Below are positions 12,562-40,277 of a DNA stretch of 64,000 nucleotides, piece by piece; position 1 is the stretch's first letter, and each line of letters opens with the position of its first letter. A program made the position numbers and the translations under genes. The stretch is from Marsupella aquatica (taxonomy: Eukaryota; Plantae; Marchantiophyta), in the NCBI GenBank assembly GCA_973895155.1, contig OZ316897.1:21170260-21234259 (forward strand), written 5' to 3'. The notes beneath the pieces are model-generated. The model saw only the letters and a program-made list of their open reading frames with translations. It ran no database searches and had not been told where the DNA came from.

Positions 12562-15500
12562 TCAGAAGTAAATTTTGGGTGGAAGGGGAGTGGGCATGCT
12601 GGAGGCAGGGGTTCTACAAGAGGGGCACTGTCTATGTTTTGAGCTCCACAACGTTTTGGTGCACTTGTAACAGATATTAGCATGATTGCAGTCTTTCCAG
12701 TAGGCCCGCTGCTGATCCAGATGTTGTCCGAACTCATTCATGCAAATGATACACTCTTCCACCTGCACCCAATAAAGCCAGATGGAGACCCCATAACAAG
12801 GTCTCATTTGTCTGTTTCATAACTAGATATAGTTTGCTTCCTTTCAGTCATCCTAACCAAGATGACCTTCCCTGTTGGTTGGTAATCAAGGCAAATAATC
12901 CATGATTATATCCTAGATAACAAATGTGCCTTCACTGACGGTGGGGATGTCTGGACCCAAGAGATTCATGAAGATTTGCTTCATAAGAAATTTGCATATG
13001 TTAAGTAAATGTTGAGAGGGAGACACCACTATGATCAAATCTGGAAGACGAGAATTTTGTATAGGTGCACCACTTACCTCATCCCTCTTGAGCTTTTGGA
13101 TCTCCTCTCTTTGTTCCCTGATTTGTTTGGAAGCCTTCTGCAATTCCACGTTTTTGAGTTTGATTTCTGCATTTCGTTGCTCCAGTTGGTTAAGCAGATC
13201 TTTGCACAATTCTTCTAGTTCCTCCCCTTCAGACACTCCTGTCCTAAGCTTAGCAGATTGCTCCTCCCACCTCTGCCTCTCCATGATGAGATGCAGGGGA
13301 TGCCTATGGGAAACGAAATCCGCTACATCCGTCTTTTTGTGTTTCCCATTCCACATATCGCTTTCGCTTTGCGTCAACTTCCTAAACATGCCATCCGAAG
13401 GTCTCTCCATCTTTCCGGTGGGGGCCTGATGGCTCGAAGCCTTTTGTCTATCTTCTATTCTTCGTTTGAGATCCAAAGCTTGCAGTTCTACATGCAATTC
13501 CTCACTCAGAATAGCTTGAGTGGCTGCAATTTCTGATTTTACGCCTAAAGCCAGAAACTCTTGAAGTACTTGCTCAGATTGTAGCTCTGAATTACTCAGG
13601 ACAGTAGCAGCATGCGGGAATAACTCCTCCCTAAATGATCGTGCATCACTTGATATGGCCTTTGGAAATACTCCGTTGATGTCCCCTCTCTCCAAATGCA
13701 CATAAATGTCAACAATCTGCGACAACAGCTCTCTTGGATTGAACTCGTATTTCTCAGGATTATTAAGTCTAAGCATTCTCCGTTGAGGCCCAACCAATTG
13801 CATCAGGAAGTAGTTAAGCATTGAAGCAATTCTTTCCACCATCTCGGGAAGTAGGAAGGGAGCCGTTATTTCAGCAGAAGTGTAGCGCAACATTTTGACA
13901 TCCTCTTTTGCCAAAGTCATATCAATTCGTACAACATTCTCCTGTTGATGGAAAAATCGAGTTCGTTCCTGGGGAGTCGGACGCTCCCACTCGGCAGTAT
14001 TTTCCATCTCTGCCTCCATCTCTTTAAGTTCTGACATCTTATTCAAACTCTCTTCCAGAAGAGATGTACTGTCGTTGATCAGGAGATTGAGGAACTTCAA
14101 ATACGCTCCCCTTTCTTCAGTCACAGCAATCTGCTTCCAACAAGTACGGTGAGAGGGTACATCCCATAAGTATTCCAGAAGCTCTCCGATATTGTACCGA
14201 ATATTGAATTTGTCATAGAACTGTGTTTTAGAACCGGTGAACTCAATCTCTACATAAAGCTTGAGAAGGTTTGGCACCAGGTACTGCAATGCCAGCTGAT
14301 GCCCTTCGAGCAGGGAAGCCATCGAATTTCTTAACGCTGCTGAATCGCTCTTCGATGGCATCCAGGCACTTAAGACTTCCACCATTTTGGCCCGTAGGTA
14401 AGGATTTTTGACATGGAGAGGGCTTTCCATGAACATTACAATGAAACTCATGAATTCATCCAGAACCATTCCATCTAATGCCCTCGGAACTCGAGACGCA
14501 AAAAGGAGAAGTTCCAATGAGTCCTCGACAAAATGTTCAGGCATTGAAGCAAATTCCATAGGGCACGGAATAGGAAGAGGCATCTTGAAGCCCCCGACGA
14601 GGCTAACGAGCCAAACAATCATCAACCTGTAGAAGCTCAACGCGTTCTGAAGAAGAGCAGTATCCTTCGACAGCTGTGCCTCGTAGCAGTACCAGTCTTG
14701 GGAAAGACGTTCAACTAAAGCCATTCCCTGCATTGATTCCAAATTAGGAGGTGCTCTAACATCACGTAGCCATCTAAGGGTATTCAAAGCCTTTTTCTGC
14801 CGTGAAAGCTCCTGTGTGATAGACTTGAAGTTTGAAATGGCCTTCACCAGTCCCAGATTCAATACTCTCGCAGTCAGGAAGAAACACTCGCAGATAAAAC
14901 TGTAATTTCTTTGCTCCGGCCCCGAGCGGACTGGAACCAGTAAATGGTTCAAGCCATTGCTGGACGACGAAGTTGTGGCTTCGTGTGAATCCATACGTCT
15001 CATTTCTTCTTGCTCCTTCTGCTGCCGGAAACCTTCATTGCGAGATAGGTTGCTTTTATCGACCCATTCAGCGACTTCTTCCGAAGTAGCATGCAATCCA
15101 GTCAAAGAGCTGAAATCGATACGCCCTTTGTGCAGTACATACCCGGCATCTATTTTATCTCTTTTAGAAGAAGAGATGTCAAAGAAAGGTTTGCAGAGAC
15201 TCAGCATAACAGCACTCAAACACACGAACATACCATTGCTGGCATTCGTGAATGGGTTTGCCTGTAGGACTTCGCTTTTAACATTCTTCTGAATCAGGTC
15301 AGCAAAATATTGAAGAACGGATTCTCTGTTGTCCGCAGATTTCAGAAGCTTCAGCAGCAACTCGTGCAATCCTTCGTACAGCTGATGCATAACTGTCCTG
15401 ATCGTTGCAAAAGAAGAAATTATGTCCGAAGGCACCCGATAGCTGATATCGGCGAAGCACCGCTGTCCGACATTTGGTTCACCGTTGCCGAAAACGGGAT

Positions 15501-16302
15501 GGTCGGAAATAGTACTGATGTAGAAGAAGGGCCCTAAAATGCTGCCCACTTCCAACACTCTGCCATTCACGTGCTCGCCCTTGGGGTGCCATAAAGGATG
15601 GTTGACCAGCGCCGTGGCCAGAGGAGGATGCGACACCAGCATCACTAGAGCTCTCAACGGCCCTTGGAATGGACCTAGCGGAGAAAGTTTCGTGACACTT
15701 CGCTGCAAATCTCGAAAGACCGGATTGAAAATGTCACCTAGTTTCTCTGCTTCGAAGAAATTGATGAAGTCGTCAAGAAATCCGGGCGGCAAAGTCGGCC
15801 TACTCGCCCCGACGCCGCTAGTGCCCGGATCGGTCCCCACTGACGGGGAGATATCCGCAAGAATGTGCCCCAACAAATCTGAATGACCGTCATTCGCAGC
15901 CTCACAACCAGGATACAGGCATACATTCCCCACATGCGAGACGCAAAGGTCCCTAACCTGGCCCAACGTGTACTGAACCTCTGCGAGAATCTGCTTGTCT
16001 TTCATGTTTTGCAACTTCCGATGTTCATCTAAAGCTCTCCAGTAGCATCCCACTAAATACACAAATGGCATCTCTCCCCCTCCCAAAAGCCTCGCCATCA
16101 ACACCCTCTCGAGCACATCCCTGTTCAGCGCCAAATTCTTCCCCTCACTCAGCAGCTCAGCGGCTAGCAATTCCAGGTACATGTACTCATGAGCTATTGT
16201 TCCTGCTCCTCCATGCTGCTGCTGCACGAGCGTCACCAGCAAAACCTTCCTCAAAATGAAATCCTCGACCTTCTCTATCCTGCTTAGCATTTCCGCCATC
16301 AC
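12562..16302 (-). CDS. UFD2: Chimeric UFD2/UBE4 core (intronless retrocopy lacking the U-box) fused to coiled-coil + RING-HC (family copy 2)
   Basis: Uninterrupted exon 16302-13078 has UFD2 motifs (EDFILRKVLLVTL, SFICECFFLTARVLNLG, NPYLRAKMVEVL, EFTGSKTQFYDKFNIRYNI, NLLINDS, NPEKYEFNPRELL). It switches at ~13499 to LHVELQALDLK..., homologous to copy 1. Donor GAG|GTAAGT at 13077; RING exon 12762-12562. Confidence 0.9.
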
Positions 16303-17549
16303 TCCACCTCTGTCTCGACAATCTCTCTCTCAATAATCCTCCCCGTAAACCGAATTCAACACCTGTCCGTGCCCACGTTTCGCCTGCCTTCCGTCCTCAT
16401 TCCGTCCTCCTTCCACCAATGCACGATGGATTACCTACAGTAGGTGCCATTCCCGTTGGCGCACTAAATATAGAACTCCTGAAATTCTGGCCTCTAATGA
16501 CAAAATATTTGGGGTCCTTGTGAATCCTTCGAATTTTTTCCCCTGTGTGAAAGATGGCCTTCCTTACATGAAACGGCAATTGAGATTGAATGTTAATGGT
16601 ATACGGTTCACAAATTGGCGATCGCTGTAACTAAGAAACAAAAAGCACAAAAAATATAAACTTCGCATGCGTTTGGCAAGGGTTGAGTTTTTTTCCTGGG
16701 AGAAAATGAGGCTTTAGATGCATTTGGTATAAGATAATTGGCTGAGAATTCGAGAAAATGACCAAGTCTTTCTTAGATCAAAAGTCAACTGATTCCATAC
16801 GAACGTGAGGCTGAATAAGAGAGCTGATGCGATCCCCCACGCCACAAGCTTTGGTCTGCTTGGCTTGCCGGCCCACCCGACCAAGAGGAGGACTCAGGTG
16901 GATTCGAAAAGAAGAGAAACAAAGGCAGCACTCGGTTTCACTCCACTAACGAGGGGCGGGTTTGGCACATGACCCAATTGCCTTTGCATTCAGGATTCTA
17001 TTCGGACAGAGCAAGTACAAATGGGATGGAACTGTTCAAAAAGGATGATTTTTTTTGTTGGTTTTGAGTGCAACCTTTGCTGATAAGTAAAATGCATTCA
17101 AAAAGGATTTTGATTCAGTCCAATAGAAGATCAGAGTTTTTGAAGCTGTGAAACGGAGTCGCATCACCATAGACAGGACTCATCATAACATGCACTTAGA
17201 TAGGGGACTTTGTCAGGACTTACAACAACTTCTACAAATTGTAGCTGAATCAGCCTTTCTCGTGAATTGAAATCAATCTAAATATCTCAGTTGTAAATGT
17301 CGTAGCATCCATCATCCAAAGACTGAAGCAGGTAACACCCTTGTTCCACAAATATTTTGCATTCAATGTAGAGCCCATAAGTTCAAATCCCAACCTTAGT
17401 AAGGAATGCTTCTTAATAAAGTCCACTGCTCGCCAATAAGGGCGAGGGACGGAGCTTACTTCATCGCTAGGGATCCTGCCCGTCTGGATTGCTGTCCAAG
17501 GAAGATCCCTTAACATGTCTGCCTTTTTCTTCTCTTGGGTAGCTTCTTC

Positions 17550-22805: not shown

Positions 22806-24405
22806 TTGTTTTATAATCTTATGTATAAAGCCAGAAAGGGAGCTATAGTTGAGTTCTAGGCTTCTAGAGTGAAGTCTATAGACAGTGACTCTAGAGCCCC
22901 ACCATAAAATATGTACATAGAAAAGAGGATGCTATATATATATATATATATATAACGTGAAGGGAAGCTAGAGTTGAAGTTTAGAGAGTGAAACCTCTAG
23001 ACCGCAACTCTAGGGCCCCACCATATATGTGCATAGAAAGGAGAATGTCATAATATGTATGATTGTTAAAATGATGGGGCCAGGCATGGTGGTTTTTTTT
23101 TATCAGACATTTCATTCACCTTCAAAGAATGGGAATAGTAAATATATTTGTTGACACTTTATTGTCCTCTCCACTATTATAGGAATCATGTTCTTTGACG
23201 GGTGTCGGGGCTAATATAAAGTAAAAAGAGAAGAGAAGGAAACAACACAACACTTGTGCATGGACAAAGAATTAAACAATTTGAAGAGATGACACACACG
23301 ACTACTTCAATGCTTACATTCCTCAATGTTGCTAGCATATTGCTCCGACCAGAAAAATTCCTGGGGTCCTCACTTTTTGTCTTCTGACTCATCATGCACA
23401 AATAAGTTTAAGGTGCTTTAATTGAATTTCATGAAAGACATACATTTTTGTGGGCAAACATTAGAGGTTTTCATCCAGACAGTTTTGAGCAATCAAGAAA
23501 AGACAGGCATTTTACAAGTAGTTTTGGAAGATTCCAAAATTATTCCAAAAATATGGGGTTAGAAATGAGGTTAAAAACCAACACAAGGATTAACAAGGTG
23601 CTTGGATGAACTCATAGTACCTGGATTGAGACAAACCAAGCATCACTACCTTATACAGTCTGTGTAACAGTACTCATGAGTTTATGATTCATTTCATATA
23701 TCACCCTATTCATTAAAACTGGAATTTCTCTAGTCCAGAAGTTGACCTTCAAATTTCTTATTTTACCCCCAAAAGTTCTATAACTTGTTCCCCAAAAGCA
23801 TACATTTTAGTTGCCAAATATACACTTTTTGAGGTCTAAAATTACAATTCTAATGCCCAAATTATTAATTAAATAATTCAGTTATCAATTATTAATACTT
23901 ATTAATTAAAAGACATTAAAGTGTTCTTATTATATACAATATAAACAATGAAAAAATAGAATAAGACAATATAATAAATTGAAATGACCCTGATAACCAA
24001 GTTACACAAAGTAACACGGAAGGTAAACCGGTGATGTATTATAAAAGTAAAAAACCTATTTTTACAGGGCCGAGACCACGTCTGCCCCAATGCAGGCTCT
24101 AGATGGTTTTGACCGGTTGTTGAATGTATATCAATTACTATGTAAAAATCTATGTCAAGATTATCTCGACCCAAATGTAGGGTCCACATAATTTTGACCC
24201 CTTGTTGAATCTATATCTCTAGCTATTCCCTTTGTATAGGGTCTAGACCCAAATAACCTTTTTCTGAGAACATATCTACAAGTAAATGAGGATCAACAGC
24301 ATCTAGACTCAAATGGATACTACGCATAGCTTCACTCTTTTTTCGAGTAAGAATATGTATATGTACAACTCACATCGTAACTGTTCAGTGTAGGGTCGAG
24401 ATAAT

Positions 24406-25680
24406 CTAGACCCAAATCTCATGCTCCTCCACCCCGCAGAATTCATTTGAGCAAGTAAACCTAGACCCTGACGGGTCATATTTCATATCGCGATTACAGA
24501 AATTGAGAGGCTTTCTATTCCAGAACTTTGTTGTGAGGTCCCTACACCTCAAGACTTCCAAAACAAATCCCCGATGATTGTCTCTGTAGGGTCTTGTGTA
24601 CTGATATCCAATTAATGTCTTTGCAAGGTCGTTGATCGCCTCCTCCGTCAATTCCTCCATTGGTGGTAATTTTTGCACTTCATTTTTGATATCCCAAGGA
24701 ATTTCGTCCGCTGTGACATCCAAGACTGTATGGAAAACGGAATGAACCCATACCATACTACCCCACCGCTCCGTCAACAATGCATAAATGGAAGCCTGTT
24801 GATCTCTGTCCGATAAAACATTTATCATAGACCACTTTGGATGATTGATAAAAAGATAGTGCTGAAGATTGAAGGCATGATACAATTTCCTGAGCAGAGG
24901 CCACAGTATTTCTGGAAAGAATGTATCATCCGTGGAGTGATGCGAAAATGAGGAAGGAAACAACCCACAATTCTTTGGATTTGCAAACGCCTTCATTGGA
25001 GTGTCATCAAGAAGGAGTGTATTAGTTTCGTCATATAATCCACCATAACGTTTCCAAACAACCCTCAAATCCTTCAAAAGAATATTTGCCTTCCCATCGG
25101 TAATGTCAGGCCTCTGGATTCCAGTATCGAATGTATCTTCTTGAGTGAGAATAAACTTGAATTGCTCTCTCTCTTCTTGATTGAAGATCAAATGAATCAT
25201 TTCATCCGTCTTGGGTTTCCTTGCACAAGTCCAAATGGCAACATCAAATAATGAAAAAGCTGCGATTAAGAACTCGTGAAGATGGGGTCGCTCAACATAC
25301 ATAAAGTTAAACCCTCCACGTCTCCCCCAGTGGACACCATTGACACTTGTCGCACTACGGCGCGGTCCGGAACTTGGCGTTTTGACAGAATCCCAGCACA
25401 TTTTGTTGAGGTCAAGAATCAATAGCTTCCGTCTGATCGGACCGTGAAGTGGAGGCAAGGGTCCTGCAAAGTACGAACACCAACGTTAGAATTGTGGGAG
25501 ATAAAACAAAGGAATGCTCGAGACGATCTCGAGCATCACAAGTGAATGAACAACAGTCAACATCATACCTGTTATTTGTGGAAGGTCAGTAGTTGAAGAA
25601 ATCTCAGGACATCTTCGGAGATTATTGTCGACGCACTCCACAATTTGTAAGGGCCCGCCTATTTCTGTGAAGGTAGACAT
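24406..25680 (-). CDS. FCP1/NIF-family HAD phosphatase-like protein (transposon cargo)
   Basis: Exon 25680-25569 (ATG; donor G|GTATG) and exon 25463-24406 (acceptor CTTTGCAG|) join in frame. Motifs KLLILDLNK, ERPHLHEFL, FDVAIWT, LLKDLRVVW, NTLLLDDTPMKAFANP. Confidence 0.8.
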
Positions 25681-25734
25681 AATAATTTAGACGGCTGAAT
25701 TTCCGGACAGTTCAAACTAACTTGGGTTTCAACC

Positions 25735-28700
25735 TCACGTGCTGAAAGACCCAAATTCATCTAGAAGGTTATCTCCTAGTTGGTTTTGGATGTCCAAATT
25801 TATCCCTCCGGGAAGGGTCTCAACAAGAGCTGGCTCAGACCAAACTGACACTAATTTGAACTTATCCATCCTATACTTTCTAGATCGAATAATCTTCTCA
25901 GACTGCTCTATAGAGATGTGTTGACCTTTTGACGGTCCATCAGTCCAAACATAATGAGTAGCACTTGCTTTGAGTGATTTGTAACCAGTTCTACCGATTT
26001 CAGTCCCCGGTTTCCTAACAAAAGGGAGAATTACGGGGCTTCCAGTAGAAGAATCTGTGAAAACAAGCTTATTCTCTGAAGCGCAAAACATTTGGTCCAA
26101 GGGAGAGGACGATGCACCTGCCTCGTCCTGAGGGGGAGTATGGAAGCCACTAGCTTTCTTAGTAGAGAAAATCTCATCCAGTTGAGGAGGGCTTGGAATT
26201 GGTTGGCTAACTGCATCCTGCAAGGTGGATTCCCAGCCAACATCCAAGGTTGAAGACTGTTGTTCACGTTGTGCATCCCCAAGGTCACCCGATGAAGGAA
26301 CACTTGGAACATCGAGATCATCTCGAGCATCATTTCCAAATTCAGGGAGTATTTCACCCTCTTCTTCCATGTAGCTTGTAATTTTCGGGCCCTCCATTTT
26401 GCGATGCTCTAAATTCTCCGCAAATACTTCCTCATAAACACTGGCTTCCACTGGAGCTATGTCTGTGGCCGCCTCTTCTATAAGAACGAGGGGACCAGCA
26501 GTAATTTCCTCAGATGGTAACGGCTCCTTGGGTGGCACATATAAAACTTGCTTGTTGTCATGAAGGAGCTGAGCAAAGGCTTCAGTGAATTCCATCTCTT
26601 GAGCTGTGTCCGAATACACAAAACAATCCCGACCAAGAATGACACAAGCTTTCAATGTCTGTCCTCCAGAGAAGAAATCCAACACTGTATGACCTGGGCA
26701 CGAGAAATAATCAACAAGACGCTTTGTCATTCGCAAAGGCTTTGCTCTCGGATTTACAAAGCCACCACGCCGACCGACCATCTCATAAGATGGGGCCATC
26801 TTCTCCAAAACTTTGACATCAATAGTGGATTCATCGAGCTTCTCTTTCCCATTTGATTGGTCTTTGTTGTTCCCAGTAGGGGCCTTCAAAGGCAAGACTG
26901 TGAAGTCTTTGTCCCACTTCTCACTGTAGTTCCAGAACGCATAAAAGTCATCAAAGAAAATTTGGGACCAGTCTGGTTCCTCTTCACAACAAATTCCCCC
27001 AAAGATGATTGAGTATCGAGCTCCAATGAGAAAATCTCCCTCCTCCTTGGGCACCTGATCACGGTAGTAGCTCCCGTACTCCAGCTTCGTGTGCACTTTC
27101 TTCTCACGACGAATCTTTTCAAAGGCACTCTGAATCTGGCCTATCAATGGGCCTTGACGGACAAAAAAGATTACTAAGACCTCCGTCGAGTTCGCCATCT
27201 GCAAGCAATACTCCAGCAAGACAAAAATTTCGGCATCTGTCCACTACCATTGTCGAATACGACCAAAATCGACAATGGAGAGTGGACACGTCCTTTGCAC
27301 CGAGTCAACAACCTCAGGCTTCATTGTCCTCATCAAATTATCGCTAAAAAATGTGCGATAAGGAGTATCCTCCATTGAAGGCAATCCGCCAAATACCTTG
27401 CAATATATCTGCTCAAGCCTCACAATGAGACTTTGCGGAAATGGGTCTTTTGGCCTATTTCTTTTTAGGAGGTTGGAAATCCAAACCTCTCCAGCAAGTT
27501 GTCTAAGTTTGGGCAACTCACCACGATCCATAAATGCAGGCAACAATTGAGTTAGCTCAAACCAAGTGAGTGAATTGGTAAACCGATCCGGATACTTCAA
27601 AACGAAGTACTCCATAATTTTTACCCTCAGCTTGGTCATGACTTTGAAAGTATGAGCCATATCACTCATTGATTGAATATCAGATTTGTTGGCTTGGTCT
27701 TTCTTCAATAAAACCTTCTGTTGTTGAACGGCAGTAAAAACTTTCAGAATGTCGTCATTACTCAGGTCTCCTTCAAAGCATCTAAACAATGCCGGCGTAA
27801 TCATTTTTGTTGTCCGGGCTTTCCCGTTTATTTTTGAACCTAACTCCCCTAGACCATCCGGAAGAAGTCCCTTGACCCAATCGATGCACATTTGTCTCCA
27901 AGTTCGGAAGAGGTTCTCATCCGAAAACAACAACCAAAAAATATTCCTCAGATCAGATTTTCCAGTCGTTATTTTGGCAAGGGCCATAAAATCCTGGTCC
28001 AAACAGTACAAAACAAATCTGAGGCTCGAGACGATCTCGAGGTAGAATTAAGAAACTATGGTAAAATTTATGGGAGAATACATGAAGATAAATCAAATAC
28101 AGAAACTTGACCTCGAGGCTCGAGACAATCTCGAGCTCGAAGTGGATTTGAGTTCAAATATACCTGGAACTTTTGATGATCCGTTAGTCTATTGGACCCA
28201 ATCACGGGTCTCTCCGGACGGCCACACTCGTCAAACTGTCGACGCGCATGGACCATAGTATCAAGAAAACAGGACTCATACTCCATTGTCTTATTAACAG
28301 CATTTGCCCTTTGTGAGTGTTGAGCAAGTATTGTCCTTGGAGTTCTGTCCGAAAGAATTCGTGACTTCCAATATTGCAGACTCTTCGCGACCTCCTTCAA
28401 CTTTGCATCGCTCTTAGCCCAACCTATGATCCAAACAGCTGCTTTTGCCGAGTGTTGTCCACTGATTGCAAGGAACTGCACCTTCTTATTCTTAACACCC
28501 CACTCAAACTCCTTTCGATCCTCAGCAGTATTCTCATAATGGAGCAACTGCAAACTCTCTCTTGAATACGGAATTAAATTCGCCATAGCTGGTACCATTC
28601 CAGGGTTTCTAACCATGGATTTTGCAACCTCCATGGCATGGTCTTTATTGAACATCCTATAAACCAAAACTGCAGATGGCGAATCTATACTGGTGACAGG

Positions 28701-30678
28701 AATGTCAAAAGTTTCATTCATGCCAAATGTGTAATACTCCTCAATCTCCTTAAGAACTTCGGCTCCTTCCTTAACGCTCTTTTCTCCCGGAGCATCTCCT
28801 GGAGTGCCATCATCATCGGTATGTGCATTCACACCCGAGGAAGATGCCGGAATGAGATCTACCTTGGGCGATGCGGACTTTTTTGGTGGATGAGCCTTCT
28901 TCGATTTGATTTCGGGTTTGTCAACCCTCTTCCTCTTTTGAGACACCTTCGCTTCCTTTTTGTCCGAACCGGAGGTCTTGTCTCCTGCAGCTATGGATTT
29001 CACTTTACCTGTTTGTCTCCGATGAGACAACACCCACTTTTTACAAGCATCCTGGTCAAATTCTCCGGCTCCAAACACAAAATCAGGGGATATAGATTCA
29101 AACTCCCCCAATTTGGATTCCAACATTAGTCTCAAAACCTTCCACGTGAAAGGAGTCGTGAATGCATCATCGCGATCAAGCCCATACTTCCGACAATAAA
29201 GGAATCCAAAAATTATGTCCGCTCCAGATATAGGAGTATCTTCTAGCAAATTACTTGTAGTAAAACCCTCGGGGAAGAAACCCATTGATATCACGCTCAG
29301 TTGTTTCCTGGCTGCACGTTCAATGTTAAGATCGCAAGAGTAGTTTTTGGCGTGAAGTCTAATTAGAGCCCACTTCCCTGTTTCGTGGTTCTCCACCGTC
29401 AAAACCATGTCCTTACCGTTACTCGTCACAATAGAAACAACAGGCCCTAGAAGGCTGCACACCAGAGGATCGACTGATGGAGACTTCGTCTTCACACAAA
29501 TAATAGTTCCTTCCATGTCTTCAGTTTCAGCAAGCTCAATGGCCCAACAGAATCCAAATAAACTCTATCCAGGGCAGGAAATCTCAATTGCATGTTCATC
29601 TTCGACTACCAAATTAGGCGATCCCAATTTCGCACTTGGTACAGCAAAAATGTAGCAATTGTCAGAAACATGTACTACAAAACCAAGATACAAATAGGTG
29701 GCTCGAGATGATCTCGATCTTCAGTTTACTATTAGACATGTTCCAATGCCATTTCATCCGTGGAATTTAAAAAGAGATTTCAAACCCAAGAATCCCAGGA
29801 AACACAATAGGCTCGAGATGATCTCGAGCCACCATCTGTTTAAAAGAAAAAGATAAGGGCTCGAGATGATCTCGATCCACATATATATCAGTTGAGGCTT
29901 TATTCCAACTGGTCCAAAAGGCAAGCTTGGATCACATTGAAAAGGATATTAGTAATTGAAGTAGACAACAAGGAGTCCTTCCAACTGGAAGAAATTGGCC
30001 AAGGGAGACGAATGAACATAAGGGAAGACGGTGTGGGATATATTTGGCTCGAGACGATCTCGAGCCTAACATATCAAATGAGTGATCTGAATATCATATT
30101 CAACAATTAACATCATATTCAATCAACGATAAAAAATCCACTTTCTCCATTAACTTCTGATACCCACAAACCCGTTCGGATGTCAATGATCAGAACGAGT
30201 TGGAGGGCACAGAAGTCCCTGGAGGAAGGAAAATTTAGATATTTTGGATATGATGTTCAATTTTGAAGGGTAAGGGTTTCCAACTTGAAGAAATCTCACT
30301 AGGTCACATGCAGGAATTGCATATTGGCTCAAGACGATCTCGAGCCTCATGCCACTTACATCAAATGCAAAATCAATTAATAGATCATAACTTTTGAAAC
30401 AAAATATTGGAGAAAACATCAATAGGCTCGAGATGATCTCGAGCCTCAACGGCATCCAAGGAATCCAAAAACAAGTGGACCAATTGAAGCTCGAGACGAT
30501 CTCGAGTTAAACCTGAACAGAACAAAGATGAAGAATTACGTTTAATGGTGCGATGGATCTGATGTGCTGAGTCTAGATGGGTCTGGAGCTCTTCGCCAAT
30601 GGTTGCAAGGTTGTACTCAGCGAAGTCCTCCTTGGAGAAATCTACAACAGTCGACATGGCTGGTGATGAGAGGAACAT
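25735..30678 (-). pseudogene. Multi-exon transposon cargo gene: ParB/Srx-like domain + beta-class N4C/N6A DNA-methyltransferase-like domain, with nonsense lesions
   Basis: ParB-like segment IPVTSIDSP..YRMFNKDHAMEVAKSM...FLAISGQHSAKA...ANAVN (~28720-28280). Phase-0 intron 28163-27994 joins KFQ|DFM. In-frame TAG at 27246-27244 and another TAG at ~29565. MTase-like PRAKPLRMTKRLVDYFSCPGHTVLDFFSGGQTLKACVILGRDC (~26751-26620). Likely first exon 30678-~30540; the exons between it and ~29640 are unresolved. Confidence 0.65.
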
Positions 30679-31810
30679 ACTACGGGCTGAGAACTTAAAA
30701 AAAATCTCGAGCCTAAAAAGAAAATCTCGACCCTATCAAAGCTCGACCCTAAACACAAAATCTTGACCCTATAAAATCTCGAGGAAAAAACCTAATCTCG
30801 ATCCTCTGCAATCTCGAGGCTAATAGAAGGATCTCGAGGCAAGAGCGCGAAACGATCTAGAGGCAAGGAGGCAAGGGACGCGAGGAGGCGAAGAGGCAAA
30901 GAGGCGAGGAGGCAAATGTGAAAATGGGGAATTCAAAACCCCTGAAGCCACTATAAGCCCCTCGGGGGTCGGCCTTGGCCGTGCCAAGCGTGCCAGGGCT
31001 CGTGCAGGCTCAAGCAGGCTGCCACGCAACCTGCTGGGTGCGTACAGTCATTATTACGGTCACACGTGTTGTCATTATTGTTATCCGTACTTCAGCCCTG
31101 CTGCAAGTTTAGCCGTGACACAAGTTCAACCATTCCGTCTTATTGCCCTTTTTGTCTGTCAGGGTTTTATATATTGCTTCTCCTTGCTCTTCAGCGGGTC
31201 ATTCTTCTCATTTCATTTCACCGCTCGCTCGTTTCTTCCTCTGCCTCTCTGCTCTCTCTCCCTCTCCCTCTCCCTCTCTCTGGCTCTAGATTTGTGCTCT
31301 GATCTCTTTCTGTTGTTCTTTTCAAGGGTTTTGGAGTCTACGTTTGTGTTTAGGATATTTCGAGAAATTGTCATTTTAAGCCCCGAAGGAGGTCTAAAAT
31401 AATTGAGCTCCTATCTTTTAGAAAACCGAACCTTTTCAGCTTATACTAATGTCGGTCAAAATCCATTTGGAAGCCTTTTCCCTCTATTTGATGGCCTTTT
31501 AGAAGCTTTTTCTCAGTGTCTGGAAGTAAACTGGGAGCCTACTTTCTTAATTGCACCAAATCATTCCTCTAGATCATCTAGAGGCATTTATATGTTCTTA
31601 TTTTGGGTGGCTTATTATTCCTAATAGTTTCTTTGTCAAATACAATGTCCTTTTTGGCTCGAGATCATCTCGAGTCATAAGTTTGGTCCTCAAACTTATT
31701 CACTTTCCCCTTCTTTCTAATGGTGCATTTGGTTTTCCTTCTTATAATAAATGTTTTTAGAGTGTCGGAGGTATAGAATCTTAATTCGATATTCAGTGAG
31801 ATTCATATTT

Positions 31811-32030
31811 TACCTCGAGATCGTCTCGAGCTAAATACTTCTGAATTTTTACATATTGGTGTTTTTGGTCCCTTTTCTACCTCGAGATTGTCTCGAGCTA
31901 AATACTTCTGAATTTTTACATATTGGTTGTTTTGGTCCCTCTTCTACCTCGAGATCGTCTCGAGCTAAATACTTCTGAATTTTGACGTATTGGTGTTTTT
32001 GTCCCTCTTCTACCTCGAGATCGTCTCGAG
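31811..32030. repeat. ~67-bp tandem repeat (3.3 units), each unit carrying the 17-bp CTCGAG palindrome
   Basis: Palindromes at 31814, 31881, 31948 and 32014, separated by ctaaatacttctgaattttt. Confidence 0.9.
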
Positions 32031-33454
32031 GTAGAAGAGTTTCTTATTTTCTCTATCACACAATTTTGTGGGATAAACTTCTACACTTGGGTTTTTGTAG
32101 TCACTTTACCTCGAGATCATCTCGAGGTGATCTCGAGGTAACTACATCCAACGGTTTGGGCCACGTTTTCAAAATGGGGAGTTTCTCTCGAGGGGACAAG
32201 GTGTGCCTCGTAATCGACGGAGTGGAAGTTGCTTGCGGGATGGTCCTCAAGGTTGACCCGGGTGACTCAGTGCGTAATGTTGATTTGGGAAGTAATCGTA
32301 TAGGAGTTCTCATTGAGAAGTGCTATGAGGGATCACAGGAAATTCCTTACCCTTTGCCGCCGATCAGGACCCTGTTTGATGCTGTCGACTCTTGCATTAT
32401 TTGGGATGCCTCTTTTGCATATTTGAAGTCACAGTCAACTCCAGCGACAACGAAAATGGATGCCTCCTGTTCTAGAAAGGATACGGTTCCGGGTTTTGTA
32501 CCAGAGAAATCGTCGGTGGAAATTTTTGGAGAGTGACTCGATTGTATCTGGCGATGAAGTCGAGGTCTGGATCGGCAATCAGATTGTGGCTCGTGGATTT
32601 GTGTTCAAGACGAATCCCGATGAGACATGTCACAATGAAAGACTTGGCACTTCTAGGATTAGTGTGAAAATATGTGAAGTTTTTCAAGGAAGGGAGAGGT
32701 TACCCTTTCCTCACAATGGAGCCGATACCGTTCAGGAAGCATTGGATACTTTTGTATTGTGGAATTTAAAGGATGTTACTCGGAGGAGTTCTTCCCGGGA
32801 TATGCTAAACAACCTGTCCAGACAGGATGTTTTTTCAAATTATAATTTCAAGGATTATAGTTTGCGTTCTAATTGGATGACCGAGGAGGTGGAATTGTAT
32901 GCTGAGGATAATCGGACCAAAGTGGGGGTTGGCATCATCACAGTTCCTTTCAAGTCAGGTGCAATTGATGATGATGTTCTTGGACCAGATCATGTTGGGG
33001 TTGCTGTCACACGCGTGATTGACCCTCTATTTTTCCCAAATATCTCCCCAGGAGTGCCTGGTCTTGTTAGGTGGGCCGTCCGTTCACTTTTGCTGATATC
33101 AAGGGGTATTTTTCTTCTGGATCTCATTGAAGAGGTTTCTCCGAAACCAATTATTGATGGTCGAGATCATCTAGAGGTAGATATGAAAGGTGACACTAAG
33201 TTTTTGAAGCGCCCGTATAATTTCATCAAGAGAACGAAGGTCAACCCAGATGAAAAAAGGAAGAAGCACTTGGAGTCTCGGGCGATACTAAAAATCACAG
33301 AGGAGGAAATCGACTCCATCCAAAGAGAAGGTTGTTGTAAGTTGAAGTGTTGCCTCAGCATGCCGAGAGAAGACCTACAGGAGATAAGGAGGGAATACCA
33401 TGGGATGTCAAGCGACAACAAAACCAGTCACATTCTCACTCTTTTTGGCTGTAG

Positions 33455-35137
33455 CACTAGTACATTTTACCTCTTTTTTCCGATTCTCTCCACATCGGAC
33501 GCCTTTGTAAAATAAAATTTGAAAAACCATATATCCGATACTACTAGCATCGCAACATGCCATTTTAATAGTATCGGATATCGACAATCGGACTTCTATC
33601 GGAAAGTCCGATGGTGGGAGAATGGGAAAGTCCGATGGTGGGAGAATGGGAAAGTCCGATGCTAGGAGAATGGGAAAGTCCGATGGTTAGAGAATGGGAA
33701 AGTCCGATGCTAGGAGAATGGGAAAGTCCGATGGTGAGAGAATGGGAAAGTCCGATGCTAGGAGAATGGGAAAGTCCGAAGCAATCAAAATGGGATATGC
33801 ATTTCAGTGGACGCGATATGTTCAGGTCACCTATCTCTTCCTTTAATTGGGTTTCTACTTTCATTTGGAACTATGAGCTAGGTGCCCATCTCCCTTGACA
33901 TGTGAACTATTCAAATTTTCTCAACTAATTGGTCACCCATCCCAATTGCTATTCCTCCAACATGAGCTTAACTTTGTGGTTCTTATTCCTTACATTGTAC
34001 ATGCAAGCTTAGCACTTTTGTTGTTTGACTTAGAGTGTTTGGGGATTTTATACACTTGTGAGTTTACTAAGACCCATAATTTGGATCCATTCTTGATCCA
34101 TTTTTCTCTATCATGAGATTAGATCTTTGCATCAAGTGACCTATTCTAGTTACCCTATTACATTCCCCTAGGAGAAACCAATAGAAATCTGGCAGGGGTC
34201 ATTCATCGATAGTAAAGCCCTCCTTCATTAGATTTGATATGGGATAATTATGGCTTATTAGTTATGGATGATATTTTGGTCCTTCCAAAGCCTCAGCGTC
34301 AATGGCTCCTGATTGTCTCATCTTTTATCAACTATGTTGTTGTTGGACTTGCAACAAAGACTACATGGGACAAGCAACCTCCTTCTAGATGATGAATTTT
34401 GGACTTGGCATGTTGAGCATATATTTCCGTAAGGGAACAATATGTTGGGTCTTGGAATGAGGCAAAAACAACACTCAAGTCCATTTGCCTCAAGTATGAA
34501 GTTATTCATGCATGCAAGAATGATTGCATCTTTTGGGAAGAGTATGTCGGTGCAACCACATACCCCATCTAACACATCAAAACTTTTCATTCTAACACAA
34601 TCAAAAATTTTCTTTTTGTCATAACCAGTCTTTCCCATACTCCCAGCATCGGACTTTCCCATTCTTCTAGCATCGGACTTTCCCATACTCCCAACATCGG
34701 ACTTTCCCATTCTTCCAGCATCGGACTTTCCCATTCTTCTAGCATCGGACTTTCCCATACTCCCAGCATCGGACTTTCCCATTCTCCTAACATCGGACTT
34801 TGCCATGTTAGCACAATCGGATATAATATCCGTTATTATTAACTACGGAAAGTTTCCGATCAATATTGTAACACACATCATTTTCGTTACAAAAAACATC
34901 GGACATATCAATCAAAGTTTCTGTTGAGGGATCCGATGTGTTTTCTAACGGATATGATCCGTTTTTTAACGCATCGGAAAGGTTCCGTTGTCAATTATAT
35001 CGGAAATGAAGATATCCGAAGCCGAGAGTATGGCATATTGCCATTTTTTGATAATCAGAATTTCCGATGCTAAAAGAATCGGACGCCGATTGTTCGCAAA
35101 AATTGAGCATCGGAAATCAGCTTAATATGTACTAGTG
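33455..35137 (+). mobile_element. Non-autonomous CACTA (En/Spm) element nested in the transposase
   Basis: TIRs CACTAGTACAT / ATGTACTAGTG, 3-bp TSD TAG. Many TCCGAT/ATCGGA subterminal motifs. TnpD remnant WNEAKTTLKSICLKYEVIHACKNDCIF at ~34454-34535. Confidence 0.95.
33601..33780 (+). repeat. 24-bp minisatellite (ggaaagtccgatgStRggagaatg, ~7.5 units) in the CACTA left arm; inverted mirror array at ~34630-34803
   Basis: Read directly; it produces the spurious GEWESPM repeat ORFs. Confidence 0.95.
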
Positions 35138-38100
35138 TAGGGAGAAGGAAGTGGAGACAAAAGGATATTTTGTTGTAAGAAGTAGACTTGTTTGCAAGGG
35201 TGCATTTATTAAAATGCATGGATTCAGCACTGCCAAGTATTATGATTACAAAAATCAATATGAAGCAGGTTGCACGGTTGGATTCCACGGAAACAAGGGT
35301 TCACACAAGACACGGGGAAGCACCTTGCATGCTCGTGCTTTGTTGGAGTCCATTCTAACCCAAAACGGAGAACCCATGCCGCATCTTCCCTATGGAGGGT
35401 CTCACGGGACTGACACGGTTGAGTACAGACTTCCATCTTGTTTCACGAAGAAAGAGATTTTTGAGGAGATATACTCAAAAATGGAATTAGATGGCTACGT
35501 GAAGGTGAGTGAAAACACTATGTATAAACTCTGGAGTGAGTCCTTCATGAATTTTGACTTTCACAAGGGAAGTGCATTTGCAAAGTGTACACTTTGCACT
35601 GAGTTCAAAGATCAGTTGATGCGGGAGAAGAGAAAGAAAGAGCGTTTAGAGATTGAGGAAAGAAGAGCTCGCCATCTTCGTGAGCAAATGTCTAGGATAT
35701 ATGTTTACTATGCTCATAGGGTTCTTGCGAAGAAGGATCCTGAGAACTATCTTTGCATTATACATGACAAGATGGACCAGGCCAAGACATGGATCCCTAG
35801 GTTGGTCCCCACTCCTAAATCATTGTCTGGTAGTGGTCAATCGCTCCCCATTGCGCTCACTGGGATGTTGACCCATGGAAGGGATCCCGGAGTGTATGCT
35901 CACTTCAGTTTTACTGGGCTTTGGCCAGGAGATGCAGACTTCACAGTGACATCATTGGCCAAGTGCCTTAGAGATCTGGAGGATTACAAGGGGGACAAAT
36001 CTGGAGACCTCCTTGAAGGATTATATTGGGCTGCAACGAGGCCAATTTTTCAATCTCTTTTGGACTTTGAAGCATTTCTCGCAGGTTACTTAGAACCCAA
36101 AAAAGTCTCAATTGCTAGATTTCAAGGAGCTGAAGATGACCAAGACGACTTTGGTGTTGATCCCAAGGCTACGTCTACCTCTTTCAAACCATTGCCAAGG
36201 CACCTGACCTTGCAAATGGATAATTCAGGGAAAGATAACAAAAACCAGTACATGATGGCATTTTGCAGTGAGCTTGTTAGTAGAGGGGTTTTTGAAACAG
36301 TGCAGATGTCGTTTCTCATGGTTGGTCACACCCATGAGGATGTCGATGCATTGTTTTCAAAAGTATCCAACCAAGTGAAGTACAAGGAGGTTTCTACCCT
36401 CTTGGGGTTGATGGCTGAGGTTTGGGAGTGTGAAAGCATTCATCCTGTGCCACGGTTGATCCAAGAGGTTGCAGCTTACAAAAAGTTTTTGAAAACTTTC
36501 AAGGTAAAAGATATAGAGGGTCACTCAAAACCAGTGACATTTCTTTTCTCTATGAGAGATAATGTTCCAATATATCAATACAAAGCACATGTGAAACAAC
36601 CTTGGTACCCTCCAACCGGAAGGTCCATTTGGAGAACTGATTCCAGCACCAATGCTCTCATTTTACCAGAAGGTCAACCATTTGCAAAACCCATCTCCGG
36701 GGATGTACGAGGCAAGGTTGAAGAAATCATCCCATTCCTTAATCGTTACATTGAGTTTTTGAAGAAGAGCTGTAAGGATGAGACCTCTACAGCATATCGT
36801 GAGCGGTTTCCTTTGGTGAAATATTGGGAGATGGTGGTGCAAGTATTATCTGGGGAGCTTACAATTGAAGGGGAGGCAGAAATACAGTTAGCATTGACAT
36901 ATGAATTCTGGCCAAAAACCAACCACGGAACTGGTTACAAGGTTAATAGTACAGGAACCTCTGAACCATTGGGGGAGCCTAGTAGTAGTACACAGAATCC
37001 ACAAATGGTGGAGCTTCAGAATGAGTACCTGGAAGAGATGGAGGATCAAGCTGCAACATTTGTTGGTGCTCGACACGAGCGAGAACTTGCACGTTGGATT
37101 CCTCTGCAGGACATTCAAGAGGGTCACTTTGTATTTCTCCGTCCAGAGGATGAATGGGAAAGGAAGAATGGGAAAGAACGTTTCTGGTTGGTGAGAGCTT
37201 TGGGTGTTGTGGACCCAAACCATGAGGTTCCTTCAGGAGACTTGCAATGCAATGAGAATTCTCCTACTAGTACACGGTATGCTCCTATGTTCCAAGTGCA
37301 ATGGTGGAGGCCTAAACATGGTAAGCATGATGCACCGGATCATGTGCGATATTCACGTTGCTTTCAGACCACTAAGACTTGGGAGGTGGATCCTGGGTTT
37401 GACAGTGCCACTGAACGTTGGCAATTTGCTAATTCTGCTATGTATGGATTCAAGTCACGCTCTAGAGAAGAAAATATAATTGATAGAGGTTTGACCATTC
37501 CCAAGAATGTTTTGAAAACACTCAAAACCTACATGGAAGGGATTGTTGAGTAAGTCAAATGTTTTTTAGTAGTCACTCTGTCAGAGTGAGGGAGTCTAGT
37601 ATGTCAATTAGTTTGGAATTAGACATGTCAGAGTGAGGGAGTCTATGTCAATTAGTTTGGAATCAGACATGTCTTTAGTACTTACTGAGTGTTGGTTAGT
37701 ACTAAGTACTAGTATATCTATTTAAGGAACTAATTATTATAATATTTTGGGATACTAGTTTGAATAGGTGGAGGTAATTGGACTTGGATACCTTTATAAT
37801 TGCTTCAATTAATTATTATATCAATACAGACTATATATTACATGAAGTCTTAATATCCATGATAGGATGTGAGTGCCTCTTAGTACTGTCTAGTAAACCT
37901 TAGTTTCAACTCGAGTTGCTTAGAATGTACTAACAAATTACTTGTCTGAATGGATATTTAAACTAAACCCTAAGTAGAAGGTTAATTTAGCTAGCTAAGG
38001 GTAGAGATCATATTGAAGCTTTACTAGTTATATGGGTAGAGATCATATTATTTGAAGCTTTACTAGTTATATGGGTAGAGATCATATTGAAGCTTTACTA

Positions 38101-38689
38101 GACACTTATATTCTATTAGTCAAATTGAATCAATGTAAGTAAATTCTACTTCTTATCCAACATATTTTACATTATTATCACCCAAATGTTTTTCTTTAGA
38201 ATCCAAATTAATATTTCATTTTCTCCTATGTACAATCTTGATCCCCCAAATGTACAACATCTGGTGCCCAAATGTACAACTCCCACTGCCCAAATGTACA
38301 ATTCTTGTGCCCAAATATATATTTTTTGGTGCCTAAATGTCCAAAGATCAAAGAATTTTCCAGTTTTAATGAATAGACTGATATATGTTAATAAATGCCA
38401 AACTTTGGAAATGCAAAGTGGAAGCTTGGATGGACGCAAATGTTTGACATTGCTAGGATGGACTCAAGAACTTTACACTGTCAGAATACTCTCTCAGCCT
38501 TCTAGTGTCATGATACGTGATAATCAAGAGAGTCAAACTCGTTCAGTTGAATGGGAACAGAGGCCACTGCATGGCAGACTACTAGAGGAATCCACACTTT
38601 CCAAACATTCTATTAGTGGTCAAATGCAGGGTTCCATGTCATTTTTTGAACAAAAGTGTAAAAACACTCTGTAAGTAAACCAACATGTA

Positions 38690-38835: not shown

Positions 38836-40277
38836 GAGGTTTCATTTTTGAGAAAGATGCCTCAAGTAATTTTTCTAGACATCCTGGCCAATTATAAACC
38901 GCTGGTTTTTGGTATACTTGTGCCATTATTTGGACAATTTTTGGAACTCAAATTTTGCCAACACTTTCTCTAATGTCCAATCATTATCCAACTACATTTT
39001 AGATTTTTCTGAGATCATTTGTTCCGTTTCAGACAAGCATGACAATGGTCAAATATTGAAAACAAATTGCCAAAGGAAGTTTCACTTTTGTGAAGAATAC
39101 CCTCACTGGTTTGGACATAAACAACTTAGAATGCGTAAAGTAATTGAAAATGGATACCTCCAACCAAATAGAGTCTTAGTCCATTTACAGGTCACATTTG
39201 CATCCAACCTATGAAAGCGTCCTCTGAGCATTGTAGACTTCTTGTGTCAGTCCGTCATAGTTTTGGAAACCCATCGAGACTTCAGAACAACCACTAAATA
39301 ACAGATGGAAATGGGGTCTTTCCCTTTCCATTTCTTCCCTTTTCATTGAGTCCTTTGCCTTTGGTACACGTCTCTTCCTAGTTTGGCCTTTTTGTTTTTT
39401 GACATTGTGATATATAACTAACCACTGTTCAATAGGGCATCTCAAAGCTTCAAAGTTGCAGAGATGACTTTTGGTCTTAACTTTTTCACATGGTTGTGTA
39501 AATTTTGTTTGTTTGTTTGTTTTTGTACTAGTCTCTCCTCTCCAGTGACTTATGGTCATGGCATATGACCTATCATTAAGGCAAAAAGTTATGAATGATG
39601 ACTTTGGTAGTTCATAAAGTTTTCTGTATGCAAGGTTAAGTACTGAGTTAAGGGTGGCTTTACAAGAACTTGGGGCAGCAATTCCTTTTTTTCTAAGTGA
39701 AAGATGCAATCCTAACCATTCATATGGGAACTGGCCACGCTTCACTTTACATGAAGTTGGGGGCACAATCAAGCAAAAGCATTACCGAACCTAGTCATTT
39801 GTCAATGGGCCCCTTGTGGGTCCCATTTTTTGCTGATGTGTGCAAGCTTTTCGTCTAAGTGCTCCAGGCAGCTTCTTTTCATGGAATTGCATTGATTATT
39901 TTCAGACCTGACACATTTTGGCTCAGGCATTTCAACTTTTGTGTAAAGAAATGGTCATCAGCTTTGCCTTGGAGACTGAATGGCCCCCACCTTCTTATAA
40001 AGCCCCCCTAAGGTTCCGGATAGATGTCCATCAATTTGAAGCTTTGAAACATCCTTTTTGGGTCAGCCCCTTCAGGTCTCCTCCTGGTTTGTGTTGTACT
40101 GGTTCAACTTTTTTGTTCTTTGGTTATTTATAACCACTAGAATAGATGAAATATAATTACTAGACTTGATAACAAAAGGATGGAGAATGGAGAAAATATT
40201 GGCCAAGTAGGGTGACCCCTAGTGGGTCCCACATTCCCACTCACCCGTTCCCAGCACGGCCAGTGAGGATTGCTTCA

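Follow-up and report, generated by a model that had tools for sequence, protein, structure and literature searches.

A predicted ParB/Srx-fold domain without its pocket arginine, joined to a methyltransferase-like domain in a high-copy transposon of Marsupella aquatica

We describe a protein family carried by a large DNA transposon within a 64,000-nucleotide stretch of the Marsupella aquatica (Marchantiophyta) assembly (contig OZ316897.1, positions 21,170,260 to 21,234,259; this whole stretch is referred to as the window). The element is a high-copy transposon of about 14.7 kb, occupying positions 23695-38387, and the gene considered here runs along its minus strand from 29.6 to 25.7 kb, encoding first a ParB-like domain and then a domain resembling the DNA amino-methyltransferases. 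Both folds are predictions, made by comparing AlphaFold models with solved structures. The explanation we favour, and which we hold with moderate confidence, is that an arginine-less domain of the ParB/sulfiredoxin (ParB/Srx) fold has been fused to a methyltransferase-like domain and is likely to act as a module that brings the protein to the DNA of its own element, rather than as a canonical cytidine triphosphate (CTP) clamp or a nuclease.

The first-pass annotation of this DNA had singled out a peptide, IPVTSID...RANAVN, as a ParB/Srx-like nucleotide-binding domain within a plant transposon protein. This peptide is present, encoded on the minus strand from 28703 to 28293 inside a stop-to-stop frame of 498 codons (28068..29564). 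A profile made from three sequences of the domain, scored with HMMER against 1.84 billion representative proteins, matched 99 of them at E<=1e-3, 63 at E<=1e-10 and 22 at E<=1e-30, so the peptide belongs to a conserved family and did not arise by chance. When 20 domain relatives were looked up by exact sequence, seven carried a species name, in every case that of the liverwort Riccia sorocarpa (7/7), and the other 13 came from metagenome or run assemblies; a relative of the downstream part of the protein (P0108) is from another liverwort, Calypogeia fissa. The domain shares 66-72% identity with P0002/P0001, compared with 42% across the whole exon, where the linker is unalignable, and on this comparison is the best conserved part of the first exon and of the protein. 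A word search for longer fused forms found none, a word search being weak evidence.

For structure prediction we used a segment of 202 residues (28155..28760, minus strand), the final three of which extend beyond the end of the exon at 28164 into the intron. AlphaFold2, supplied with a family alignment of 30 sequences and run without templates, returned a model with a predicted local distance difference test score (pLDDT) of 90.6 and a predicted template modelling score (pTM) of 0.84. Foldseek comparison of this model with the PDB gave 22 listed rows (to rank 24), all of them Noc, ParB, PadC, sulfiredoxin, SbnI or KorB, the best with an E-value of 1.6e-3 and a probability of 0.99. VIA-align provided a comparison that did not depend on Foldseek: of 48,161 representative chains only 23 had Z>=2 and seven Z>=5, these being PadC (7.9), KorB (7.7), a free serine kinase (7.2), pNOB8 ParB-N (7.0), Arabidopsis sulfiredoxin (6.1), SbnI (6.1) and the uncharacterised Atu1540 (5.7). 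The serine kinase and SbnI we take to be ParB/Srx-fold proteins. Below Z 5 the same comparison lists human sulfiredoxin (4.9) and SspE (3.5), the latter a GmrSD-type ParB-like protein, and unrelated chains begin at Z 3.1. When VIA-align was applied to 431 chains ranked by Foldseek, 52 reached Z>=5; the best was the Myxococcus ParB-CDP structure (Z 9.7, 2.5 Å, 95 residues aligned), followed by further nucleotide-bound partition ParBs from Caulobacter (9.2) and Bacillus (9.0) and by Noc (9.0), with root-mean-square deviations ranging from 2.5 to 3.1 Å. A viral structure library yielded three matches at E<=1e-3, and its named rows were ParB, sulfiredoxin or GmrSD-N, besides a few labelled 'Uncharacterized protein'. 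Language-model look-alikes of the domain include a ParB_N cluster with a score of 0.91. The elements of the model run as strand 18-21, helix 39-51, strand 60-66, an inserted helix 79-90, strand 95-98, helix 102-114 (which begins with GQHS), strand 130-136 and helix 142-155, and this modelled order is that of the ParB/Srx superfamily core with one insertion. Structure prediction had been proposed at first pass as a check on the annotation, and it has delivered a confident model whose best matches are ParB/Srx-fold proteins; a ParB/Srx fold for the domain is thus supported by modelling.

Sequence profiles gave the opposite answer, and the ParB/Srx identity originally claimed therefore stands by fold (the AlphaFold2 model, Foldseek, VIA-align and the viral library) and fails by profile. 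The ParB_N family PF02195 has no match in the frame of the window (Pfam, E<=1), in any of 45 longer homologues (E<=0.01), in any of 30 alignment members (E<=5) or in any of 10 proteins scanned at E<=0.05, and none in P0001 or P0002. Neither NCBIfam nor PADLOC profiles held anything relevant for the domain, there was no ParB among the matches when PDB sequences were searched with phmmer and with a profile, and the family alignment, when compared with phage P1 ParB by hhalign, reached a probability of 0.1. The Foldseek E-values against the PDB are themselves marginal, none reaching 1e-3 or below. All of these results count against kinship with ParB. The DndB family PF14072 matches one of the 30 alignment members, with an E-value of 0.04. 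The best PDB-sequence rows for the domain, an RPRD1B domain and a fimbrial subunit, were judged spurious.

Partition ParB proteins use a Box II arginine patch of the GERRxRA type to bind CTP. In the domain studied here the corresponding place is taken by the motif SGQHS (28449..28463, minus strand), which stands at the N-terminus of helix 102-114 as the putative counterpart of the ParB GxxR and DndB DGQHR motifs with arginine replaced by serine; in the window it reads ISGQHS, within the context AISGQHSAxAA. The first-pass annotation had noticed that the arginine finger appeared altered, and we find the alteration to be family-wide: among the 77 members that cover the GxxR arginine position, 68 have serine, four threonine, four leucine and one tryptophan, and none has arginine. 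The rest of the motif is kept, with histidine in 77/79 members, glutamine in 72/78 and glycine in 72/80, and as a five-residue string it is SGQHS in 51/76, DGQHS/T in 4/76 and NGQHS/T in three. Two residues past the Box II arginine site the alignment is variable (arginine in 12/77, lysine in 12/77). Q102 and H103 do not vary at all within the alignment of 30 sequences, and conservation is at least 90% for G101, S104, A107, R131, N153, A60 and P64. A Box I-like arginine is kept in 65/73 members, a Box III-like asparagine in 67/69, and the arginine of a later HAR.Q motif in 58/63. Given that the glutamine, histidine and glycine are conserved together with the Box I-like arginine and the Box III-like asparagine, a pocket is under selection, yet it is without the GxxR arginine, and this loss argues against a canonical CTP mode. 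According to the literature, this arginine is central to the NTPase activity of the superfamily as well as to its DNase activity (PMC5512222).

The ParB-like domain is encoded by the first of two exons. The open part of exon 1 (28164..29564, minus strand) begins with an N-terminal domain to which no fold is assigned, continues through a lysine-rich linker (KRKRVDKPEIKSKK, 28937-28896, minus strand) and includes the ParB-like domain. Its last codons, AAG TTC CAG, reach 28164 and are succeeded by GT at 28163-28162. An intron of 170 nucleotides (27994..28163), which contains two palindromic sites at 28025 and 28119, closes with AG at 27995-27994 directly ahead of the start of exon 2 at 27993, and the frame is kept across it. 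Two homologues, P0011 and P0108 (the latter from Calypogeia fissa), are continuous across the 28163/27994 junction, which together with the GT..AG sites supports the in-frame splice to a methyltransferase-like region that had been suggested at first pass. Exon 2 (25738..27993, minus strand) encodes a helical middle region, the methyltransferase-like domain and a disordered acidic region. The C-terminal end, ...DEFGSFST at 25738, is conserved and common to seven homologues; the stop codon follows at 25735-25737. The whole protein is about 1,220 residues long.

The methyltransferase-like domain (26542..27378, minus strand; P0106 residues 206-484) is predicted by VIA-align and Foldseek to have the fold of the beta-class N6-adenine/N4-cytosine (N6A/N4C) DNA methyltransferases. 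Its VIA-align matches include CcrM (Z 16.2), TTHA0409 (15.8), M1.HpyAVI (15.6), MboIIA (15.5) and PvuII (14.0), as well as the rotifer N4CMT; the top 20 are all amino-methyltransferases, and the next matches score 5.6. Foldseek places M.RsrI at an E-value of 2.6e-7. The model of this alpha/beta domain, for which pLDDT is about 70-90, has a Rossmann-like fold and shows the beta-class order, with motif IV before motif I. Where the catalytic motif IV, (D/N/S)PP(Y/F/W), would be expected, the window has DFGR (27259..27270, minus strand), and D[FL]xR occupies this column in nine of nine sequences (the eight homologues reading DFSR, DFSR, DFGR, DFTR, DFGR, DFGR, DLAR and DFAR), with DPPY absent. The motif I region, VLDFFSGGQ (26659..26685, minus strand), is a putative S-adenosylmethionine (SAM)-binding loop of the FxGxG type and is the sole part recognised by Pfam PF01555, the match covering profile positions of about 160-215 only; the cut-off is 26.7 bits, the score of the window is 28.0-28.2, and all seven homologues (7/7) fall below the cut-off at 23.1-25.9. 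Conservation extends to LDFFSGG of motif I and to an NPxxKP stretch. Between the two domains of interest lies a helical region of about 200 residues (P0106 1-200; pLDDT about 78-94), for which the fold search was uninformative, its match list being filled by the methyltransferase domain.

The gene in the window is a decayed copy, as it carries two premature in-frame TAG codons that are private to it and read CAG in other copies. One lies in exon 1 (29565..29567, minus strand) and the other within the methyltransferase-like domain (27244..27246, minus strand), where the neighbouring TGG is CGG in other copies. We compared the window with four public sequencing runs (X1, X2, X3 and X5), used as contigs of unknown kind. 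At 27246 the A>G difference accounts for a depth of 3175.3/3175.3 in X1, 556/795.4 in X2, 933.1/933.1 in X3 and 60.7/60.7 in X5, and at 29567 A>G accounts for the entire depth of all four runs, so that the majority of the family is open at both codons. The differences of the window's copy between 25700 and 29700 are mostly transitions (in X1, A>G 22, T>C 28, C>T 29 and G>A 14, with four to seven transversions per class), and both premature stops are C-to-T changes, as expected of a methylated, silenced repeat.

The same element contains a set of palindromic sites. If a single mismatch is allowed across its 17 nucleotides, the core CTCGAGA-NNN-TCTCGAG is found at 18 places in the window, where 0.01 would be expected by chance and none of 100 shuffles reaches 18, and all copies are confined to 25517-32137, inside the element. 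Fourteen of them (29702..32137) occupy the 2.5 kb between the ParB-methylase gene and the divergently oriented transposase gene, with their orientation switching between 30.5 and 31.6 kb; the other four are at 25517, 26311 and the two intronic positions 28025 and 28119. In several copies the arms lengthen by GG/CC to nine nucleotides, and the flanks are unconserved. The repeat includes both GATC and CTCGAG.

Taking these observations together, we infer by analogy that the protein binds the element and modifies, shields or regulates it, a hypothesis carried over from the algal ParB-methylase transposon proteins. The ParB-like module would engage the element's own DNA, the 17-nucleotide inverted-repeat sites between the divergent genes being candidate binding sites, and would position or activate the methylase-like domain. 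Since both catalytic signatures have been replaced family-wide by equally conserved residues, non-canonical chemistry or a binding or regulatory role seems more likely than ordinary N6A/N4C methylation coupled to CTP hydrolysis. Several further points temper this reading. The catalytic tetrapeptide of the methyltransferase is absent, which makes 'marking' by methylation doubtful, and the palindromic sites might just as well be used by the transposase or by a host factor. With the window's copy broken by two TAG codons, what we propose concerns the family and not that copy. With tblastn the methyltransferase part matched 108 phage records by motif I only, with a best E-value of 2e-3, and ParB_N was found in none of three sampled phage methylases. 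The same search matched two plasmid records (E 3e-2, motif I only), and a tblastn search with the ParB-like domain had zero matches among 50,697 phage records.

The strongest rival, which we regard as possible although not probable, is that the protein is a transcription regulator comparable with KorB or DndB, in which the ParB-like domain and the helical region bind the palindromes of a putative divergent promoter region and tune expression of the transposase and of the gene itself, the methyltransferase-like domain being a non-catalytic SAM or DNA sensor. The placing of 14 of the 18 sites between divergent genes, with the flip in orientation at 30.5-31.6 kb, would suit such a role, as would the replacement of both catalytic signatures in folds that are kept, and the fold matches with the highest scores include KorB (Z 7.7-7.8). 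Set against this, no DNA-binding fold was identified in our searches, and the methyltransferase-like domain retains motif I and NPxxKP in strongly conserved form, which suggests that it is more than a passive scaffold.

The first-pass annotation had also raised a clamp gated by CTP or another nucleoside triphosphate (NTP), which could load at specific sites and spread along the element; such a clamp would close by dimerisation of its N-domains and carry the methyltransferase-like domain with it. We consider this unlikely. The closest solved structures are indeed those of nucleotide-bound CTPase ParBs and Noc (Z 9.0-9.7), the Box I-like arginine and Box III-like asparagine are retained, and the 18 clustered palindromic sites are reminiscent of parS arrays. 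The Box II arginine, however, is missing in 77/77 members, no helix-turn-helix (HTH) or C-terminal dimerisation domain was recognised (the helical-region fold search being uninformative), and there was no ParA-like partner among the large frames of the element that were scanned. In addition, a phage ParB that activates a DNA-modifying enzyme, a thymine dioxygenase acting on double-stranded DNA, was able to dispense with its NTP residues (PMC13229309).

It is very unlikely that the ParB-like domain is a nicking or DNase domain, comparable with that of Bacillus cereus Bce_0392, which aids excision or replication of the element. In fusions with adenine methylases, ParB domains have been seen to nick DNA non-specifically, but the pocket responsible for this activity is described as having a highly conserved arginine (PMC5512222), where the present family has serine, threonine, leucine or tryptophan in 77/77 members, and a DDE-like transposase is already available for DNA cleavage. 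Least probable of all is that the resemblance is due to chance or is an artefact of modelling, with no ParB/Srx kinship, for although every sequence-profile test missed ParB and Z scores of 7-10 are rated middling by the tool, Foldseek and VIA-align (PDB and viral library) both rank ParB/Srx proteins alone as their best matches, well separated from unrelated chains (Z<=3.1), the order of secondary structure and the G-Q-H at the helix N-terminus fit the superfamily, and the same architecture of ParB plus methylase has been published for algal transposons.

If the favoured explanation is along the right lines, it is of some consequence, as it is rare for a transposon to bring along DNA- or chromatin-modifying proteins of its own, and such proteins give it one of only a few ways of acting on its own epigenetic state. 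Accessory proteins that combine a ParB-like domain with an N4/N6-methylase have so far been reported from algal elements only, and the class would reach into land plants with a conserved, high-copy family for which every named relative is a liverwort. A host enzyme of the same methylase family is reported to write N4-methylcytosine in the sperm of Marchantia (bioRxiv 10.1101/2021.02.12.428880). With both catalytic signatures exchanged for conserved residues, the protein offers a natural test case for what these folds can do beyond their textbook chemistry, and the clustered palindromic sites offer a concrete candidate target for binding. A bolder version, which we offer as speculation and think improbable, is that an arginine-less ParB module, acting as a site-specific loader at palindromes on either side of a bidirectional promoter, together with a methyltransferase lacking DPPY, forms a self-directed epigenetic switch on silencing, and that the same module exists in the DUF3723 proteins of Starship elements. 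Were this to be true, ParB-derived accessory proteins would be a toolkit common to large eukaryotic transposons from fungi to land plants, and a transposon could escape or set its own silencing.

The setting of the gene bears out the transposon context given at first pass, since it lies within a block of repeat-level depth that has inverted-repeat ends and contains a DUF7869 transposase. The candidate left terminal inverted repeat (23695..23724, plus strand, 30 nucleotides) is 93% complementary to the right one (38358..38387, minus strand), and both coincide with the edges of the depth block in three public runs. Depth in X1, X2 and X3 rises from 547, 204 and 73 in bin 23001-23667 to 15,348, 5,236 and 500 in bin 23668-24334, remains high through 37675-38341, after which it falls, and is down to 698, 233 and 142 by 39009-39675; low-depth contigs adjoin the block at 23689/23727 and at 38357.

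The transposase is on the plus strand, opposite to the ParB-methylase-like gene, and its frame is in two parts. The 5' part (32427..33449), which matches no Pfam family, runs on in frame into 35136 in other copies, and the second part (35136..37553) is a DDE-like DUF7869 frame (PF25273, E 3.6e-44; Atlas clusters 0.96-0.97). In one DUF7869 look-alike cluster 11% of members also have DDE_Tnp_ISAZ013, hinting at an ISAzo13-like DDE origin; we found no mention of DUF7869 in the literature searched. The two parts are separated by a nested insertion of the CACTA type (33450..35135; 1,686 nucleotides, or 3x562) with termini CACTAGTACAT and a TAG duplication. This insertion is non-autonomous and private to the window's copy, the joint 33449->35136 being present, in frame, in X1, X2 and X3. 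It has subterminal 24-nucleotide arrays in inverted orientation (33601-33779 and 34630-34806), which were dropped as candidate ParB sites, as they lie within an insertion that other copies do not have.

Downstream of the ParB-methylase stop codon is a NIF/FCP1-like phosphatase frame (24406..25485, minus strand; PF03031, 61.2 bits), which is a separate gene, given that the protein ends at 25738 and shares this end with its homologues. It has DLNKM in place of the DxDx(T/V) motif and may be inactive or decayed. Elsewhere in the window, an intron-less frame of 1138 codons (12913-16329, minus strand) contains a full Ufd2P_core (E 1.9e-183), and its C-terminal coiled-coil-like tail recurs in the long minus-strand frames 7350-8633 and 47270-48907; the frame may be a gene that was captured or retro-copied and lies in another repeat.

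Among known systems, the closest in design come from algae. Green-algal ParB-methylase transposon proteins were reportedly described by Iyer et al. in 2011. In Ectocarpus, the 21.5-kb Sola1 family includes Sola1-1_Ec32, in which a protein of 1104 residues with a ParB-like domain and an N4/N6 methyltransferase is encoded opposite the transposase, and the proposal is that this protein binds the transposon encoding it and modifies it (PMC12477816). The present gene resembles it in being one long protein of the same composition, opposite the transposase of a large DNA transposon; it differs in its liverwort-related host and in a transposase that is DUF7869 rather than Sola1, and the two are likened by architecture. 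In the red-algal Plavaka elements, PAG3 combines a ParB-like domain with a 2-oxoglutarate (2OG) oxygenase and PAG2 combines an N6A methylase with a SET domain, and repeat arrays adjoining the gene have been proposed as binding sites (bioRxiv 10.1101/2025.02.11.637652). Here too a ParB-like domain is coupled to a DNA- or chromatin-modifying domain as the cargo of a giant transposon, but the methylase, which in the red-algal elements is in a separate protein, is in the same chain, and the 24-nucleotide arrays of the window are in the nested CACTA-type insertion, unlike the gene-side arrays of the red algae. No literature on a ParB-methylase transposon gene in bryophytes was found, and where the red-algal preprint mentions Marchantia or bryophytes, it is with respect to sex chromosomes and TALE homeodomain (TALE-HD) factors rather than transposon genes (bioRxiv 10.1101/2025.02.11.637652).

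Fusions of ParB with adenine methylases are also known from bacteria and phages (PMC5512222, PMC4738411). Like B. cereus Bce_0392 and the methyltransferases of ParB-terminase loci, the protein has a ParB N-domain followed by a methyltransferase of the N6_N4_Mtase type; unlike these prokaryotic and phage fusions, which retain both the pocket arginine and an active DPPY-type motif, it has neither. Architecture by itself makes a prokaryotic ParB-methylase fusion a plausible ancestor; the searches found no link at the level of sequence. The best core matches are to partition-type ParB, Noc and KorB (Z 7.7-9.7), with which the family shares the Box I-like arginine and the Box III-like asparagine, and from which it differs in having no Box II arginines, no recognised HTH or dimerisation domain, and a methyltransferase-like fusion; the architecture is that of the ParB-methylase fusions and not that of a partition ParB.

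Within the ParB/Srx superfamily, the motifs DGQHR (in DndB) and DGQQR (in GmrSD/DUF262 and SspE) mark particular branches. The x-G-Q-H-x motif of the family is like the DGQHR of DndB, with DGQHS/T in 4/76 members and the arginine absent, and it is unlike the DndB, SspE and BrxU branches in structural score, with Z values of 3.5 for SspE, 2.9-3.1 for BrxU and 2.3 for the DndBCDE entry 9jfl_A, much lower than for ParB, PadC and KorB. Fungal DUF3723 (PF12520) clusters head the list of language-model look-alikes for the domain, with scores of 0.94-0.95 and 173-183 of 256 features shared. DUF3723 is reported as a conserved cargo gene of Starship transposons (PMC9156397), and the present gene is likewise cargo of a large eukaryotic transposon. 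PF12520 was absent from the 30 members scanned at E<=5, and no literature linking DUF3723 with ParB was found; kinship with DUF3723 is a lead only. Accessory proteins that pair a ParB-like domain with an N4/N6-methylase are already published for transposons of brown, green and red algae, and the present gene is therefore best regarded as a land-plant variant of these, with altered active-site motifs.

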